DNA from: Patescibacteria group bacterium
GTDB taxonomy: Bacteria > Patescibacteriota > Minisyncoccia > Phycocordibacterales > Phycocordibacteraceae
Length of the DNA: 64,000 nucleotides
Assembly: GCA_040384725.1 (NCBI GenBank)
Contig: JAZKIS010000002.1
Span: forward strand, 7,682 to 71,681
Reading direction: 5' to 3'
The notes beneath the pieces are model-generated. The model saw nothing but the letters and a program-made list of their open reading frames with translations, made no database searches and was not told the origin of the DNA. Below, in pieces: positions 42,503 through 50,500 of the stretch; positions within the stretch are counted from its first letter, which is position 1, and every line of letters begins with the position of its first letter. Made by a program: the position numbers and the translations under genes.

Positions 42503-43036
42503 CTATTGCTTACTGGCACGTACTTTTGCTGCAAACTCTGCAATCTCCTCTTGCGACATCAAGGTGATTGAGAGATTCTCGGCGGCCTGCATTATCTTCT
42601 TATCGGCCTCATCCTTTTCACTGAGGTCTGCAACGACTATCTCGAGTTCTGCATGATACTTCCAGTCCTCGCTCCACTTGAGCGCAATTTCTACCTCTCC
42701 ATACTTAAAATTAGTTCTCTTCTGCGTACCCGCTATGATCTGCTGAGGCTCGCTGATGGCATGGCATATTGATCGCATGGTCTCATACTGATCTGCAGGA
42801 AAGGGCACTTCGAACTCCTGAAAAGACGAGCCTTCTCCGAGCGCGTTCAGCTTGAGGGAGAGTACACCCGTGTTCTTTGAAAGATTGTTAACTACTTTCA
42901 AGAGCTTATCGGGGAAGATGATATATTCTACTTCTTTATCATCTTGGCCGATCAGTGTCCCTTCCTGTGTCAGCTTTTCGAGGAGAGCAGTATAGCTATC
43001 CTCGGTTAACAGCGTGCGGTGTTCTATCTCGTACAT
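42503..43036 (-). CDS. CYTH-like (triphosphate tunnel metalloenzyme/CyaB-like) domain protein, paralog 1
   Basis: N-terminal YEIEHRTLL (ExExK-type start) and C-terminal acidic EVEIALKWSEDWKYHAELEIVV strands typical of the CYTH tunnel. Confidence 0.5.
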   Translation of the reverse strand: MYEIEHRTLLTEDSYTALLEKLTQEGTLIGQDDKEVEYIIFPDKLLKVVNNLSKNTGVLSLKLNALGEGSSFQEFEVPFPADQYETMRSICHAISEPQQIIAGTQKRTNFKYGEVEIALKWSEDWKYHAELEIVVADLSEKDEADKKIMQAAENLSITLMSQEEIAEFAAKVRASKQ

Positions 43037-43039
43037 ACG

Positions 43040-44296
43040 CTAGATAGTAGCATTCGACTTCCTACACACGACAGCGTTAACCCTATGTGAATCGTCTCCG
43101 GCGCGCGCAATAACTTCAAAGCCTTCTTTTTTTAGGTTCTGGACCATGCGCCCATAGGTCATATATGCCTTGCGCCTTCGCTGTCTTGCCTCATCGGGCT
43201 CAAAGTGGGTGATGAAATCGAATATGAAGAGACCGTTGTTTTTGAGGACACGGGAGTGTTCCTTGATGAAAAGATTTACGTACGCCTTCCCGACATGAGA
43301 AATGAGGACACCCCGGGAACAGACGAGATTGAAATACTCATCCTCATAAGGAAGATCGAGACTATTTGCGAGGATGTAGTGCCTCATCGATGAGTCTTTA
43401 TCGGCGTGCTCGAGCATTCGAGGAGAGATATCCACCGCCACTACCTGATAGCCCTTGGTATTAAGCTGCTTTGCAATTACGCCAGTCCCACAACCGGAAT
43501 CTAATGCGAGCTCAGAGTTACCGCTCTTAGTATCTGGCACCTGCGCTTCTATAAAATCAAGGAAACGTGAATATCCATCCTCGATATTCACGTAATGAGA
43601 CGGGTCCTTAATCACAGTGTCCCAGGTTTCAGCTTCTTTATCCCAGTTATCTCTTACTTCGCTGGCTTTGAAATAGCTTGATTCCTTCAGACGCTTTATG
43701 GCGTCAGTGATCTTTGGCAGGTCCGCATCATAGAGCTGCGCACTGAGGATGAACGCGGTCACCTGACCCCTTGAAATTTGCAGCGAACGAGCTATCTCTG
43801 CATGGACAGCAGAGAGCTCTACCATGTCGGGTATGAACTTCTTTGCAAGGTCGCTACTCTTGAATATAACGTTCATTGAAATCTGACCGTTTCTTACAGC
43901 GAAGTTTATCTCGCTCACACATGGCTGCTTACGCGAGTTTGGATCAGCAAGGATTATCGTCGCTGACCTAGTCAGTGGCTCTGCCTGCAGCCTCTCGATC
44001 ACACGCGATACCTGATCAATGCCGTTCATGGCACGCATGAGCGCATAATAGTTGCGCCCTGTTGCAGGATCTCCGGAAGGCGAGTAGATCCTGCGCATGT
44101 AGTCAAGATACTCGCTGCCGAAAAGGTCGATGTACTGGGGAGTTTCGATCTCAAATGCGTTTGCGTATGATATTTCTAGGTTGCGAATCTCGAGAAAAGG
44201 CTCGCTATCATCGACCTTGTTTCCTTGAATTGCAGTACGGATAGCCTGAAGCCAAGCACCCTCAAGGGTATTCTTAACGGCATTTGAAGATTTCAT
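43040..44296 (-). CDS. fusion: thymidylate-synthase-fold (ThyA/dNMP hydroxymethylase-like) N-domain + class I SAM methyltransferase C-domain
   Basis: N-half: QVSRVIERLQAEPLTRSATIILADPNSRKQPCVSEINF...KSSDLAKKFIPDMVELSAVHAEIA parallels ThyA [53 protein letters not shown] (catalytic Cys retained). C-half: motif I LDSGCGTGV, motif II-like FNLVCSRGVL. Confidence 0.6.
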   Translation of the reverse strand: MKSSNAVKNTLEGAWLQAIRTAIQGNKVDDSEPFLEIRNLEISYANAFEIETPQYIDLFGSEYLDYMRRIYSPSGDPATGRNYYALMRAMNGIDQVSRVIERLQAEPLTRSATIILADPNSRKQPCVSEINFAVRNGQISMNVIFKSSDLAKKFIPDMVELSAVHAEIARSLQISRGQVTAFILSAQLYDADLPKITDAIKRLKESSYFKASEVRDNWDKEAETWDTVIKDPSHYVNIEDGYSRFLDFIEAQVPDTKSGNSELALDSGCGTGVIAKQLNTKGYQVVAVDISPRMLEHADKDSSMRHYILANSLDLPYEDEYFNLVCSRGVLISHVGKAYVNLFIKEHSRVLKNNGLFIFDFITHFEPDEARQRRRKAYMTYGRMVQNLKKEGFEVIARAGDDSHRVNAVVCRKSNATI

Positions 44297-44298
44297 GC

Positions 44299-44913
44299 TT
44301 AGCTATGGTCTAGGTACTTTCGGTACTGCTTATCCTCGTCGCGCATATGGCGGAGGATAAGGTTACGAATAAATTCGGACCTATTAATTTTATACGTGAA
44401 GCTTGCCCAATCCAAATAGTTTTCTATCTCCTTTGTGAGTACGATATTGAACTTCACGACCGGCCTTGCACCGTTGTTATTCAGGAAGTCATTGAGAATA
44501 TCCGCGAGGTTGGAATCGTCATACTCGACCACCTTGAGGAGAGGAGAGGTTAGGCCTGCAAGGAAGGAGTCCTTCGGCTTGCCGCCTTTCTTTGGACCTG
44601 GAGCCTTCTTAACGAGGAAGAGGGTAGGCTTATTCTTCGAAAGCCCGAGCGTAACCTGATGTCCAACACTAAAGCTCGTAACCGTTCCTTCGATTATGAC
44701 CACATCTGAGGCGAGAATGGAGGCGACGACGCTGTTGTAAACCTCTTCGCGATCAAGAGTACTGACCGCCTTCTGCTCTACAAGCTTGATTGCTTCTTCG
44801 AGCCAATCACGACTGATACTATGCCCCATCTCCTTAATAAGGGAGCATATCTGCCTATAGTCATCCTTGTAGGTTTCCAGCTCGGAAGTTGAGCAGGCGA
44901 AGTGGACTTTCAT
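44299..44913 (-). CDS. fusion: DNPH1/nucleoside 2-deoxyribosyltransferase-like domain + C-terminal ribbon-helix-helix
   Basis: KVHFACS...ASDVVIIEGTVTSFSVGHQVTLGLSKNKPTLFLVKK parallels DNPH1 ALYFCGS...QADVVVAEVTQPSLGVGYELGRAVAFNKRILCLFR. C-terminus KFNIVLTKEIENYLDWASFTYKINRSEFIRNLILRHM is a beta-alpha-alpha RHH pattern. Start at MKVHFAC. Confidence 0.55.
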   Translation of the reverse strand: MKVHFACSTSELETYKDDYRQICSLIKEMGHSISRDWLEEAIKLVEQKAVSTLDREEVYNSVVASILASDVVIIEGTVTSFSVGHQVTLGLSKNKPTLFLVKKAPGPKKGGKPKDSFLAGLTSPLLKVVEYDDSNLADILNDFLNNNGARPVVKFNIVLTKEIENYLDWASFTYKINRSEFIRNLILRHMRDEDKQYRKYLDHS

Positions 44914-44987
44914 GCTGTTTTTATAACACAAGTGTGTATCATATGCAATATTGTGTATATATGTAAGTGTGTATACCATACATACTT
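44914..44987. promoter_or_regulatory. AT-rich divergent promoter region with three direct TGTGTAT repeats (candidate RHH operator)
   Basis: TGTGTAT at 44933, 44952, 44968 (spacing 19 and 16 nt); also ACACAagTGTGT inverted element. Confidence 0.4.
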
Positions 44988-46502
44988 ATGAACCTTAAAG
45001 GCAGACGTAGGGTTACTGGCCGCAAAAACCTAGGAACTGGGGAGGCAGTAGCTGTCCTTATGGTCGGGTTTGGCCCGCACGCACAGCGTATCCATTTCCC
45101 AGCCATTCAAAAGAATGGAGCAGAATTCAATGCATACGTAGCTGCGATCGTTGAGCTTCAGTCAAAGGAGGAGGATGTACGGTCGTATATAGCAGGCCTG
45201 TCATTAGCAGTGGAGCCAGAGCTTCTGTTTCTACCAGATAGCCAGGCAGGGTCTGAACTTAGTCAAGCATTCAGAAGTAAGCTCGACCTTTATGTACAGA
45301 CTTTGGGTATCTCTGCAGTTATCATTGCTACCGAGCCTCTCGCGCACATTCCGTATGCACGCTGGGCACTTAAGAAAGGTCTTCATGTTCTCATGGACAA
45401 ACCGATCTCGACGAAGAAGAATGCGTCTTGTGATATAGCCGCTGCACGCGAAATAGCTAAAGATTATGATGACTTGCTCGCACTTCTTAAGCGCTCTAGG
45501 CTTCAGAACCCTTCCTTAGTGTTTGATCTTGTTGCGCAGCGCAGATTCCATCCTGCCTTTTTACTGCTGCAGAGTCTTGTGACAGAAGTAGCGGAGCGGA
45601 CAGGCATGCCCATATCATCAGTGTCGTCGGTCCATAGTGACGGACAATGGCGCATGCCTGATGAGATTATTGATATCGACTACCATTCCTACAACCAGGG
45701 ATACGGGAAGTGTTCCCATTCCGGATATCATTCACTCGACATACTCTCTTGGCTCATTGAGACGACCACACCGGATTCGAAAAGGCCCGATGCGATAGAT
45801 GTTTTCAGCAACTTCATGCGCCCGCAATCGTTCTACAAGCAGCTAACACGAAATGATTATCAGAAAATATTTCCTGACTACAGCTCAGTCTCTGTAAGGT
45901 CTGATAGGAAGCTGCAAACTAAGTTCACGGGCATGGGGGAGATCGATGCTCTCCTCTCACTAACCTTCAAGAAGAAAGGAGTACCGATGACGTTAGCATC
46001 CATAAGCCTCCTCCATAACGGCACTTCACAACGCGGATGGGTTAATTCTAAAGATAGAGACCTCTACAAGGGAAACGGCAGAATTCGTCATGAATCCCAC
46101 TACATCGTTCAAGGGCCTTTTCAGGCAATATCCTTTGTCTCGTACCAGAGCAAGGAATACGGCCAGTCGCGGAATGATATATACGGCATGGGAGGGGAGC
46201 ACCACCTCGATGTGCATGTATTCAGGAATGACTCGCTATTTCCTGACTGGGAGGCCCGGAGAACGTATACGTTCAAAGATATCTCCGCAGTAGAGAGTGG
46301 CGGTGCATCACAAGGCCATCAGGAGGATGCCAGACGCCTGTGCATCAAGAATTTCTTTGAGCAGGTGCACACCGGAAATCTAAACTCGAACTCCTCCCTT
46401 GAAGATCACCGCACGTCTGCACATCTGCTTAGTGCAGTATATGAATCAGCATGCAAGAGGCTGGGGACTGAGAACCCCTTGGTTACCTTACAAACTGTAT
46501 AG
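44988..46502 (+). CDS. Gfo/Idh/MocA family NAD(P)-dependent oxidoreductase
   Basis: Rossmann N-domain VLMVGFGPHAQRIHFPAI...IIATEPLAHIPYARWALKKGLHVLMDKP typical of Gfo/Idh/MocA; start uncertain (alt 45060). Confidence 0.65.
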   Translation: MNLKGRRRVTGRKNLGTGEAVAVLMVGFGPHAQRIHFPAIQKNGAEFNAYVAAIVELQSKEEDVRSYIAGLSLAVEPELLFLPDSQAGSELSQAFRSKLDLYVQTLGISAVIIATEPLAHIPYARWALKKGLHVLMDKPISTKKNASCDIAAAREIAKDYDDLLALLKRSRLQNPSLVFDLVAQRRFHPAFLLLQSLVTEVAERTGMPISSVSSVHSDGQWRMPDEIIDIDYHSYNQGYGKCSHSGYHSLDILSWLIETTTPDSKRPDAIDVFSNFMRPQSFYKQLTRNDYQKIFPDYSSVSVRSDRKLQTKFTGMGEIDALLSLTFKKKGVPMTLASISLLHNGTSQRGWVNSKDRDLYKGNGRIRHESHYIVQGPFQAISFVSYQSKEYGQSRNDIYGMGGEHHLDVHVFRNDSLFPDWEARRTYTFKDISAVESGGASQGHQEDARRLCIKNFFEQVHTGNLNSNSSLEDHRTSAHLLSAVYESACKRLGTENPLVTLQTV

Positions 46503-46559
46503 CCTGGCAACTACTATGTAACTTCGCCAGGCAACAGCATCAAAAGAAAGGAGGAGACG

Positions 46560-47276
46560 ATGATCTTTACAGTTGGATTTGAAGGCGTAAACCGCACAGG
46601 AAAAGGGACTCAGATTGGTCTGCTCCGCACTAAGCTGGAGCTCCAATCGATCCCCACACTCGTACTACGGGGTAATGGATCGCGCGAAGCACAGGGAAGT
46701 CACAAAGGTGATCCGCTCTCTGCTTGGTGGGATAAGGCTAACGACCTCCGGGATGAGATGTTTGACGCAGGGTGGTGGGTGCGCGCGAGCGTTAGGCTCG
46801 CGCGTGAATACCTGGCATGGCGCGAGTATATCTTTCCGCGCTTTCTCGAGCGCACTGGTAACACCGACGGGATTATCCTAGTGGACAGGACTGTCCTATC
46901 TGCGTTCATGTTGCTACTTGAAAATGGCGACACGGACTGGAGAAAGCTGTATCCGCCCCATGCAGGACCAAGAGGTACTGAGATCTCCGGCGAGCTAGTG
47001 TGCCCTGATCTTATCTTTAACTTCATTGCCCCAGCAGCGGCCTTGCTCCCTCGGTTAGCACCTGACGATCCGAAGCATGACTTCAGAAAGGGGCTGATCG
47101 AGCGGAACGCTGGTAAGTACGCCATAGCGTCCGCACTAGTACCCCCTGATGTGCGCCGCAGAATCCATGAGTTGGACGCTTCGCTCACTGAGGAAGTCTT
47201 GCATGAAAGCATCGTGGCAACCCTTGGGTGCTATGCACCAAAACGTATTGGAGACGCGCTTCATGCGAATCCATAA
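46560..47276 (+). CDS. thymidylate-kinase-like P-loop nucleotide kinase with divergent P-loop
   Basis: IFTVGFEGVNRTGKGTQI aligns to the dTMP kinase I(A/T)FEGxDGSGKTTQ; LID-like basic region; 238 aa. Confidence 0.5.
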   Translation: MIFTVGFEGVNRTGKGTQIGLLRTKLELQSIPTLVLRGNGSREAQGSHKGDPLSAWWDKANDLRDEMFDAGWWVRASVRLAREYLAWREYIFPRFLERTGNTDGIILVDRTVLSAFMLLLENGDTDWRKLYPPHAGPRGTEISGELVCPDLIFNFIAPAAALLPRLAPDDPKHDFRKGLIERNAGKYAIASALVPPDVRRRIHELDASLTEEVLHESIVATLGCYAPKRIGDALHANP

Positions 47277-47281
47277 CAACT

Positions 47282-47316
47282 TTCACCCTCCGAAGAGTAT
47301 CGGAGGGTGAACTTTA
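47282..47316 (+). terminator. hairpin after the kinase gene (weak T-tract)
   Basis: TTCACCCTCCGA-agagta-TCGGAGGGTGAA perfect 12-bp stem then CTTTAG. Confidence 0.4.
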
Positions 47317-47338
47317 GAAATCGTGATAACTTGATTAT

Positions 47339-47908
47339 ATGAATGAATACGAGGTAAAGCTCACTGGCCTAGACAAGGCATCTGTAAGAGAAGTGCTCGC
47401 GCGAACCGGCACACTAGAGAACGCGGAGCATGTACAGCACAATCTCGCCTATCACCTTCCCCCAGGAAGGGAGATCGAGGGAGGATGGCTTCGCATCAGG
47501 AACGAGAACGGATGCATAGCGATGAGCCTTAAGATAATCGCGAGCGACCGCATAGAGGATCAATTCGAATACCGTCTTGTAGCGAGCAGCATGGAAGAAG
47601 CGAGAGGGTTCCTTGAGCTCATGGGCGCTACACAGAAAGCCGAACAGGAAAAGAAAAGGGAAATATGGCGTGTGGACGATTGTGAAGTGGTAATAGATGA
47701 GTGGCCATTCCTCGAAGCGTATCTCGAAGTTGAAGGGCCTTCAGAAGCATCGGTTAAGGCTGTAACGGAGAAGCTTGGTTTTGATTACGCATCAGCACGT
47801 GTCTGCTCAGCCTCACGGCTCTATACTGAAAAGTACGGTGTACCGGAGAAGACAGTAAACGACGAGACTCCTATTCTTATATTTGGGATGGATAATCCCT
47901 TCACCTAG
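47339..47908 (+). CDS. CYTH-like domain protein, paralog 2
   Basis: MNEYEVKLTGL start; EIWRVDDCEVVIDEWPFLEAYLEVEG acidic tunnel strands; shares motif layout with the 42503..43036 gene. Confidence 0.5.
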   Translation: MNEYEVKLTGLDKASVREVLARTGTLENAEHVQHNLAYHLPPGREIEGGWLRIRNENGCIAMSLKIIASDRIEDQFEYRLVASSMEEARGFLELMGATQKAEQEKKREIWRVDDCEVVIDEWPFLEAYLEVEGPSEASVKAVTEKLGFDYASARVCSASRLYTEKYGVPEKTVNDETPILIFGMDNPFT

Positions 47909-49423: not shown

Positions 49424-50500
49424 ATGAAAGATTCTTCTCCAGTTTGGTCTTGCAACGAATGGGATCCTCTCGAGGAAGTGATCGTTGGCAGCGTCGAGGG
49501 AGCGATTGTGCCTGAGCTGGATGAGGCAGTGGATGCCATCATGCCCGAGCATGCAGAATGGTTCTTCAGGGAGTATGGAGGAAAGCCCTTTCCCGAGGAC
49601 ATGATTCAAAAGGCGACGGTCGAGCTCGACAACCTCTCGAACGTTCTTTCTGATCTTGGCGTAACGGTCAGGCGGCCTGAGCCAATGGCGTTCTCAGAAG
49701 AATACAAGACGCCGTGGTGGAAAAGCTACGGCCTCTATGCTGCCATGCCTCGTGACGTGTTTATGGTCTTCGGGGATACGATCATTGAAGCCCCGATGGC
49801 ATGGAGGAGCCGCTACTTCGAGCATTTCTCGTACCGAACACTCATGAACGAGTACTTCGATAAGGGCGGCCGCTGGCTTGTTGCTCCTAAGTCAACCATG
49901 GGTGCCGGGTTCTACGATGAGTCGTATGATTCAAACAACCCAACCACTAAGGACGGCAAGAAGCGCTTTGTTATTACAGAGAACGAGATAGCGTTCGACG
50001 CGGCAGATTTCATTCGCTGCGGAAAGGATGTGTTTGTTCAGAAGAGCAACGTGACGAACGAGAAGGGCATCGAGTGGGTGCGTCGGCATGCCGGCTCAGA
50101 ATTTACGATCCATGAAGTGGAGTTCGGCGACTCGCATCCGATGCATATAGACACGACTATCGTCCCCCTCGCGCCTGGAAAGATCCTCATCAACCCTGAG
50201 TGGGTTAAGAAGCTTCCGCCTATATTTGATTCGTGGGATGTGCTCGTTGCGCCGCCTCCAACCAAGTCTGAGGATAAGGCCCTCTATTTCTCTAGCGACT
50301 GGCTTACGATTAACACGCTTAGCGTTGACGAGAAGCGTATCATCGTTGAAGAACAGGAAACGCCGCTCATTGAGGCGCTCAAGGGGTGGGGATTTGAACC
50401 GATTCCTGTGCCGTTTAGGAACTTCTACCCCTTCGGAGGATCGGTACACTGCGCAACCCTCGATGTCCGCCGTAAGGGTATCCTGAAGTCCTACTTCTAA
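49424..50500 (+). CDS. amidinotransferase (glycine/inosamine-phosphate amidinotransferase family, AGAT/StrB1-like)
   Basis: Collinear match to vertebrate AGAT: SCNEWDPLEEVIVG, AMPRDVFMVFGDTIIEAPMAWRSRYFE, FDAADFIR (catalytic Asp), HPMHIDT (His), GGSVHCATLDVRR (catalytic Cys). Confidence 0.85.
   Translation: MKDSSPVWSCNEWDPLEEVIVGSVEGAIVPELDEAVDAIMPEHAEWFFREYGGKPFPEDMIQKATVELDNLSNVLSDLGVTVRRPEPMAFSEEYKTPWWKSYGLYAAMPRDVFMVFGDTIIEAPMAWRSRYFEHFSYRTLMNEYFDKGGRWLVAPKSTMGAGFYDESYDSNNPTTKDGKKRFVITENEIAFDAADFIRCGKDVFVQKSNVTNEKGIEWVRRHAGSEFTIHEVEFGDSHPMHIDTTIVPLAPGKILINPEWVKKLPPIFDSWDVLVAPPPTKSEDKALYFSSDWLTINTLSVDEKRIIVEEQETPLIEALKGWGFEPIPVPFRNFYPFGGSVHCATLDVRRKGILKSYF

Follow-up and report, generated by a model that had tools for sequence, protein, structure and literature searches.

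The locus described here lies in a 64,000-nucleotide stretch of contig JAZKIS010000002.1 (assembly GCA_040384725.1) from an uncultivated, ultra-small Patescibacteria group bacterium; the whole of this stretch is referred to as the window, and positions are given within it. At its center is a leftward gene encoding a protein of 204 amino acids (aa), in which an N-terminal domain related to DNPH1 and MilB, members of the nucleoside deoxyribosyltransferase (NDT) superfamily, is joined to a C-terminal ribbon-helix-helix (RHH) domain (Table 1). The gene ends in a TAA stop codon (44299–44301), 2 nt from which the partner gene begins with an ATG at 44296. The open reading frame (ORF) of the fusion protein as listed runs over 44299..44979 (-) and would encode 226 aa. 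As all 48 of the 48 aligned homologs start with MKVHF, the ATG at 44913 is taken as the true start, and the start at 44979, which would carry the reading frame across the operator described below, was rejected. The additional N-terminal extension of ~22 codons (44914–44979) spans operator and promoter and is not conserved. ORFs longer by ~22 codons, beginning at an upstream ATG and encoding 226–229 aa, are also found in the public gene calls P0002, P0009 and P0019. The divergent intergenic region reported in the initial annotation is present, at 74 bp (44914..44987) and not the 75 bp given there, and is followed by the ATG of the rightward gene at 44988. For the fusion protein, neither Pfam nor NCBIfam gave a family above cut-off, and a single-sequence phmmer search of the PDB gave no match.

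Table 1. Features of the locus, with positions in the window (the paralog arrays are located in compared loci, which carry L labels)
Feature	Position	Strand	Basis
DNPH1-like/RHH fusion protein gene, 204 aa	44299..44913	-	ORF list and homolog-defined start
N-terminal DNPH1/MilB-like (NDT superfamily) domain, residues 1–148	44470..44913	-	Profile against PDB, Foldseek, AlphaFold2
His85-Gln86 codons (CAT CAG; Gln86 at 44656–44658)	44656..44661	-	Hidden Markov model (HMM) alignment to DNPH1; GHQ replaces GYE
Linker, RHH and extra C-terminal helix, residues 149–204	44302..44469	-	AlphaFold2, Foldseek, family profile
Main operator candidate, palindrome GTGTGTAT-ACC-ATACATAC	44967..44985	.	Conserved pattern upstream of orthologous operon
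Extra half-site TGTGTAT (ATACACA in gene orientation)	44952..44958	+	Directly upstream of -35 hexamer
Extra half-site TGTGTAT	44933..44939	+	Inside 17-bp spacer between -35 and -10
Predicted leftward-operon promoter	44920..44948	-	Conserved blocks, alignment of 27 upstream regions
MilA-like domain and class I S-adenosylmethionine (SAM) methyltransferase fusion, 418 aa	43040..44296	-	Pfam, profile against PDB
CYTH (triphosphate tunnel metalloenzyme) protein, 177 aa, third operon gene	42503..43036	-	Pfam CYTH 7e-5
Divergent gene set	44988..47908	+	Pfam
Gfo/Idh/MocA-like oxidoreductase, 504 aa	44988–46502	+	Pfam
dTMP-kinase-like P-loop kinase	46560–47276	+	Pfam, weak match
Second CYTH protein	47339–47908	+	Pfam
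Tandem paralog arrays	L047:1179–3682, L046:30–1626, L044:107–1602, L011:3759–6579, L012:1991–3734, L040:4953–7716		

The C-terminal region had been read in the initial annotation as an RHH domain, with prediction of its structure suggested as a check. When residues 146–204 were modeled alone with AlphaFold2 (AF2), an ordered domain was obtained (predicted local distance difference test, pLDDT, of 90) that comprises a stretch in extended conformation followed by a pair of helices and a further, additional helix, and the full-length model shows the same C-terminal layout. The extended segment (residues 149–160) holds the beta-strand VKFNIVL and is followed by helix A (161–174) and helix B (178–192); DSSP does not call the strand in the monomer model, as is expected where pairing takes place in the dimer alone. 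Foldseek returned 40 matches to the isolated domain, nearly all of them RHH proteins, including Reg576, ORF56, Rv0298, AtaR, Arc, CopG, the PutA DNA-binding domain, AmrZ, ParD, TacA, NikA and the RHH of MatP. These matches have probabilities of up to 0.97 and template modeling (TM) scores of 0.6–0.88, and root-mean-square deviations of 1.2–1.9 Å over 39–44 columns (44-residue proteins; CopG, PutA, AmrZ).

At the sequence level, a profile of 55 diverse family members compared with the PDB matched TTHA0139 (E = 0.0017) and CopG (E = 0.075), the latter alignment spanning the strand and both helices, and matched AvtR, VapB26, CopG-family regulators and NikR more weakly. Paralogs of the protein match Pfam RHH_1 and RHH_3 near threshold, one distant paralog reaching 20.4 bits for RHH_1 against a cut-off of 20.5. 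Residues alternate between polar or basic and hydrophobic along the strand V-K-F-N-I-V-L, in which K154 and N156 are invariant among orthologs, and helix B is opened by the motif N-[KR]-S-E-[FY]-I-R with an N-capping S/T. Conservation of the strand positions that would face DNA extends to the wider family: of 143 representatives, 100% have R/K154 and 92% have N156.

The N-terminal domain is most similar in sequence and fold to DNPH1 (Rcl). A profile of 49 orthologs compared with the PDB matched 12 DNPH1/Rcl sequences (E = 2e-6 to 1e-4) over positions 3–144, and Pfam PF05014 matches the fusion protein below its cut-off of 28.8 bits (15.9 bits, E = 0.014) and one distant paralog above it (35.1 bits). 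The full-length AF2 model has a mean pLDDT of 84, with values of ~90 in the core of the N-domain and low values in the loop of residues 103–125, and its best 50 Foldseek matches are all DNPH1 (target-normalized TM about 0.72–0.85), giving the domain a flavodoxin-like alpha/beta fold. The architecture proposed initially, a DNPH1/NDT-like domain followed by an RHH domain, thus finds agreement among profile, AF2 and Foldseek. The layout DVVxxE-T-x-S-x-x-G-x-[E/Q] followed by K-P-x-L is shared with DNPH1 and with MilB/BcmB.

The residues on which catalysis depends in DNPH1 are, by contrast with the fold, replaced. In the HMM alignment, SLGVGYELG of DNPH1 stands opposite SFSVGHQVT of the fusion protein, which puts Gln86 where DNPH1 (E104 in the human enzyme), MilB (E103) and NDT have their catalytic nucleophile Glu, and this Gln is invariant in 49 of the 49 aligned orthologs. 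The substitution is the same as that in the engineered DNPH1 E104Q chain 8qhq, itself among the profile matches. The triad Tyr (Tyr24 of human DNPH1, in VYFCGS) is opposite His4, with His or Cys in orthologs, and the triad Asp (Asp80 of human DNPH1) is opposite Val62, where the helix alignment is less certain. Residues F5, Y19, G30, W37, Y59, E75, G76, S80, G84, H85, Q86, K95 and P96 are invariant in orthologs; the positions of E75, S80 and G84 are presumably those that bind sugar and phosphate in NDT and DNPH1 structures. DNPH1 is inactivated by E104Q yet still binds 5-hydroxymethyldeoxyuridine monophosphate (5hmdUMP; PMC10603095), and MilB E103A is without hydrolytic activity (PMC4081090).

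Since the catalytic Glu is an invariant Gln and the triad Tyr is His or Cys, the N-domain is more likely to be a ligand-sensing pseudoenzyme than a hydrolase, and we infer that it binds nucleotides without canonical cleavage. Among the 143 family representatives, the nucleophile position is Gln in 67% and Glu in 14%, with mostly hydrophobic residues in the rest, and retention of the Gln suggests selection for binding. By ancestry the protein is a member of the NDT/DNPH1 superfamily, but it has lost the residues on which catalysis in that superfamily relies, which argues against its annotation as a DNPH1-type hydrolase. Of the initial annotation's account of this domain, the homology and fold are therefore retained; the quoted G-x-E-L-G is absent from the sequence, which reads SVGHQVT, and the proposed activity of a DNPH1-like nucleotide hydrolase is not supported, given Gln for the nucleophile Glu, His/Cys for Tyr and Val for Asp. 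The same replacements separate the protein from both DNPH1 and MilB, as do its C-terminal RHH domain, which the characterized enzymes of this type do not have, and a lysine-rich insertion in the DNPH1-like fold. This insertion is the low-confidence loop KKAPGPKKGGKPKDSF (residues 103–125; window 44539–44607, minus strand), at a site where DNPH1 gives a serine to the phosphate site of the neighboring subunit, and it could contact DNA or phosphate.

The partner gene bears on the likely ligand. Its product matches Thymidylat_synt (4e-9) and Methyltransf_11 (1.5e-19) in Pfam, and a profile of its thymidylate synthase (TS)-like domain compared with the PDB found the CMP 5-hydroxymethylase MilA as the best match (E = 1.3e-7), above every thymidylate synthase. 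The catalytic P-C is kept in this domain, and an invariant P-D aligns with the base-specifying Asp of MilA, where thymidylate synthases have Asn, so that a MilA-like pyrimidine C5-hydroxymethylase or C5-methylase is predicted. A TS-like/class I SAM methyltransferase fusion of 412–422 aa is the next gene in most orthologous loci, usually followed by a CYTH gene. Because the partner enzyme is MilA-like, cytosine-type nucleotides, and not 5hmdUMP, are the likely ligand context of the N-domain. Pairing with a TS-like enzyme is also the genomic likeness to MilB, since MilA/MilB is the documented earlier case in which a TS-like and an NDT-like gene go together, with a link to bacimethrin (PMC4081090). 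The cytosine-type Asp is shared between the partner enzyme and the MilA/MilB and BcmABC pathways; those pathways differ in having a canonical, active glycosidase, the Glu of which is lost here.

An alternative, already raised in the initial annotation, is that the protein is both enzyme and regulator; it would be an active N-glycosidase working by an altered mechanism and coupled to RHH autoregulation as in PutA. His85, E75 or D36 would then activate water, with Gln86 positioning the substrate, and a modified pyrimidine base would be freed from the product of the MilA-like/methyltransferase fusion by a bacimethrin-like route. The gene set does mirror BcmA, BcmB and BcmC (TS-like protein, NDT-like glycosidase and methyltransferase, respectively) as well as MilA/MilB, the partner is closest to MilA, and the invariant polar cluster of H85, Q86, E75, D36, W37 and Y59 looks like an active site that has been preserved. 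Tyr and Glu are both retained in some distant paralogs (GHE/GYE), indicating that the family descends from active enzymes. Nevertheless, the entire DNPH1 triad (Y24, D80, E104) is replaced by H/C, V and Q, changes of E to Q in DNPH1 and of E to A in MilB abolish activity, and we know of no NDT-superfamily glycosidase without the Glu, which together make such a bifunctional protein unlikely.

The intergenic region contains TGTGTAT at 44933, 44952 and 44968, as had been noted initially, making three copies inside 42 bp. The heptamer occurs four times on both strands of the whole 64-kb window, compared with 2.8 expected, and chance comes nowhere near explaining three of them in 42 bp; as the clustering is conserved across orthologs, it is not an accident of composition. 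The third copy forms one arm of a 19-bp palindrome, GTRTGTAT-N3-ATACAYAC, with two 8-bp half-sites whose centers are 11 bp apart, a spacing that we take to be the geometry of the Arc operator with two RHH dimers. While the repeats named in the initial annotation stand, it is this palindrome, and not the repeats themselves, that is the main candidate element, and the assignment of the repeats as operators of the leftward operon gains support from phylogenetic footprinting.

Orthologous loci share, in gene orientation, the block AGTRTGTAT-NNT-ATACAYAC-TTACAYAT-ATACACA-AYATTGCWT-(13)-TGnTATAAW-(6-11)-ATG, the flanks of which are unrelated. Each of 24 loci (19 of them independent), like the window, has a single occurrence of the pattern GTRTGTAT-N1-6-ATACAYAC, which lies upstream of the orthologous operon and always 55–110 bp before the regulator gene; no other occurrence was seen in the 442 kb made up of 378 kb of loci and the 64-kb window. 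Given that 14 of its positions are fixed and 2 are two-fold, the number of matches expected by chance is estimated at below 0.01. Four further loci carry the palindrome with 1–2 mismatches. In locus L034, five genes on one strand are ordered TS, kinase, QueC-like, CYTH and, last, the regulator, and here the palindrome, with 1 mismatch, is placed 39 bp ahead of the TS gene that opens the operon and not before the regulator, showing that it belongs to the operon promoter.

This promoter is predicted from the conserved blocks, with a -35 hexamer TTGCAT (44948..44943), a 17-bp spacer and an extended -10 element TGtTATAAA (44928..44920). Of the two single half-sites, that beside the -35 hexamer is kept as ATACACA-AYATTGC in most orthologous upstream regions, and that in the spacer is ATACAYA in L018, L025, L028, L029, L007 and L027 and is replaced by TGTGGATAA in others. 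The ATG follows the -10 hexamer after 6 nt in the window and after 6–11 nt across the orthologous loci (extended -10 TGnTATAAW), and no Shine-Dalgarno sequence is visible before the fusion gene, so that the operon mRNA is probably leaderless. The conserved promoter was passed over by a simple sigma-70 consensus scan, since its -10 hexamer ends in A; two other weak matches that the scan gave are not conserved.

An improbable reading of the palindrome is that it acts as an RNA hairpin, for example masking the rightward start, or serves a different factor as its site, with the C-terminal domain serving only oligomerization or protein contacts. The plus strand does fold into a 12-bp hairpin (-11.4 kcal/mol, z = -4.1) a few nucleotides before the rightward ATG, and the individual RHH matches are weak. 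Every palindrome folds in this way, however, and the arms are conserved in sequence and not by compensatory change, the sole variable position giving a G-U wobble on differing strands between loci. The palindrome also lies upstream of the conserved -35 in this clade, and hence outside the operon mRNA. The divergent gene differs from locus to locus, and the palindrome goes with the operon for the RHH protein.

Proteins of this kind are numerous. The 116 close homologs, of 200–230 aa or fragments, come from metagenomes or Patescibacteria metagenome-assembled genomes, and all 116 are labeled “hypothetical” or unnamed. A search for further RHH-fused NDT-family proteins, which had been suggested with the initial annotation, was carried out exhaustively with a profile and gave representatives of 1,664 clusters (50% identity) at E <= 1e-3, and of 937 at <= 1e-10; the best 150 are nearly all 180–215 aa in length and matched over both domains. 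Distant paralogs (25–30% identity; Shapirobacteria, WS6 and others) have the same NDT-like/RHH architecture and often stand in tandem in groups of 2–5 genes, where copies keeping Tyr and Glu are mixed with copies lacking them. In the literature searched, nothing relevant was found on an NDT/DNPH1-RHH fusion or on CMP hydroxymethylase and CYTH in Patescibacteria, and no report of an NDT/DNPH1-like sensor.

Several further homologs and array neighbors were observed. The arrays of L040 and L011 include a radical-SAM-like gene (CxxxCxxC) on the opposite strand, and L040 also has a stand-alone NDT-like gene of 150 aa. A divergent NDT-like/RHH paralog of 193 aa with the motif VIFQ (L001:799–1380) is situated 7 kb from a regulator ortholog. 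A distant homolog with 27% identity and a GHE motif (L014:5836–6402) is on a contig binned as Gammaproteobacteria, reflecting either horizontal transfer or a binning error.

Although distant paralogs match ThsB_TIR/TIR_2 weakly (E = 0.002–0.03) and form tandem arrays of 2–5, and RHH domains are typical of antitoxins, a conflict or defense system pairing a TIR/NDT-like effector with an antitoxin-like RHH is very improbable, as PADLOC and PHROGs searches gave no match (on which grounds an origin in defense or phage was discounted), the orthologous group at hand has one copy per locus and close linkage to genes of nucleotide metabolism, and the TIR scores are well under the DNPH1 scores.

Known regulators offer parallels to the proposed protein. 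NikR likewise joins an RHH to a ligand-binding oligomerization domain and recognizes a palindrome with two separated half-sites, and the same logic may apply here; in NikR, however, the RHH is N-terminal and the sensor is an ACT-like metal site, whereas the fusion protein has a C-terminal RHH and a nucleotide-enzyme fold, for which allostery is only proposed. PutA is the classic RHH-enzyme fusion that regulates its own divergent operon, and its DNA-binding domain was matched with a target-normalized TM of 0.88, but it is a large and active flavoenzyme with an N-terminal RHH, whereas the enzyme-like domain of the fusion protein is without canonical catalytic residues. Reuse of a nucleotide-metabolism enzyme fold as the effector domain of a repressor of related genes is seen in Bacillus subtilis PurR, in which a phosphoribosyltransferase-like domain binds phosphoribosyl pyrophosphate, and in NrtR, in which a Nudix-like domain binds ADP-ribose; both have winged-helix DNA-binding domains and other enzyme folds. 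CopG, Arc and omega share the order of strand, helix and N-capped helix and operators of 7–8-bp inverted and direct units, but are stand-alone proteins of 45–70 aa without a sensor domain, and the half-site GTRTGTAT is specific to the fusion family.

Taken together, the fusion protein is proposed to be a one-component, autoregulatory, nucleotide-sensing transcription factor with a non-cleaving N-domain, a reading to which we assign a probability of about 0.5. That it is a DNA-binding autoregulator is held with good confidence, and, if this is granted, a sensor is somewhat favored over an enzyme. In this mechanism, the C-terminal RHH would dimerize and insert its two-stranded beta-ribbon into the major groove, with K154, N156 and V158 facing the DNA. 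Two RHH dimers would occupy the two 8-bp arms of the palindrome, and further dimers the single half-sites beside the -35 hexamer and in the promoter spacer. Occupancy would set expression of the leftward operon (regulator, MilA-like/SAM-methyltransferase fusion and CYTH) and, in this genome, probably of the divergent oxidoreductase, kinase and CYTH genes as well. Filled sites at the -35 and in the spacer would exclude RNA polymerase and result in autorepression, with activation from the upstream palindrome also possible. The N-domain, as a descendant of a DNPH1/MilB-type nucleotide N-glycosidase, would use its Gln-containing pocket to bind, without cleaving, a 5-modified pyrimidine nucleoside monophosphate ((d)CMP-type) from the partner enzyme. 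Should the N-domains dimerize as in DNPH1, they would join two RHH dimers into a tetramer, and a ligand at their interface could alter operator affinity, as nickel does in NikR. The protein is thus suggested, by analogy, to work in the manner of NikR and PutA and of pseudoenzyme-sensor repressors.

A number of observations tell against this proposal. Each single Foldseek match to an RHH protein has E >= 0.2, which is usual for a domain so small, Pfam RHH_1 remains below its cut-off (matching 3 of 20 orthologs, best E = 0.033), and a profile of the C-terminal region of close orthologs matched no RHH chain in the PDB. Invariance of Gln86, His85, E75, D36 and W37 would also fit a changed catalytic mechanism, and bacimethrin- or mildiomycin-like synthesis would need a glycosidase, a role for which the operon offers no candidate but the fusion protein. 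The palindrome is missing or rearranged in a few orthologous loci (L018, L023, L035, L037), and its position, mostly upstream of the -35 hexamer, would be compatible with repression as well as with activation.

With regard to the neighborhood, the conserved operon contains no second regulator gene across the orthologous loci, and no intrinsic terminator was found after the operon. In many loci the fusion gene has the CYTH gene downstream of it. Control of the rightward genes, also put forward in the initial annotation, is plausible, as the palindrome ends 2 bp before their first ATG, but they are not conserved partners; they may share the operator region, judging from position. L015 shows the same divergent layout, and genes for a kinase and a CYTH protein turn up repeatedly close to orthologs. 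A sister clade at 50–55% identity (L003, L009, L034, L035) has a module consisting of a TS-like gene of 250–265 aa, dTMP kinase, a QueC-like ATP-pyrophosphatase and CYTH. The gene set therefore has the appearance of a pyrimidine-nucleotide modification module, and the partner enzyme hints at a pathway, so far unstudied, for a 5-modified cytosine nucleotide in Patescibacteria. In the window, two CYTH paralogs flank one regulator, and the 504-aa Gfo/Idh/MocA-like protein is unusually long, with only its N-terminal Rossmann part recognizable. Further to the right, an ORF of 358 aa (window 49424–50500, plus strand) without a Pfam match at E <= 1 has the C-terminus GGSVHCATLDVRR, which is reminiscent of the catalytic Cys motif seen in enzymes of the amidinotransferase or arginine-deiminase type.

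By current understanding, Patescibacteria possess very few regulators and lack nucleotide biosynthesis. Tentatively, the DNPH1-like/RHH proteins may represent a large undescribed class of nucleotide-sensing regulators in this group, built from a naturally “substrate-trapping” glycosidase fold, of which the member described here would control a new 5-modified cytosine nucleotide pathway. Such a pathway would include the MilA-like/methyltransferase fusion, the dTMP-kinase-like kinase and the CYTH triphosphatases, with the QueC-like enzyme in the sister clade, and its product could be a precursor for DNA hypermodification or an antimetabolite against the host bacterium. The predicted operator and a short list of candidate ligands make the hypothesis checkable in vitro without cultivation, and a DNPH1 fold in which Glu has naturally become Gln is of interest as a scaffold for binding nucleotides, DNPH1 being a drug target. 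If the coupling of a pseudo-glycosidase to an RHH domain is true, the ~1,660 unnamed clusters would add a whole regulator class to Patescibacteria, and a conserved modified-pyrimidine operon, unstudied so far, would be brought to attention.

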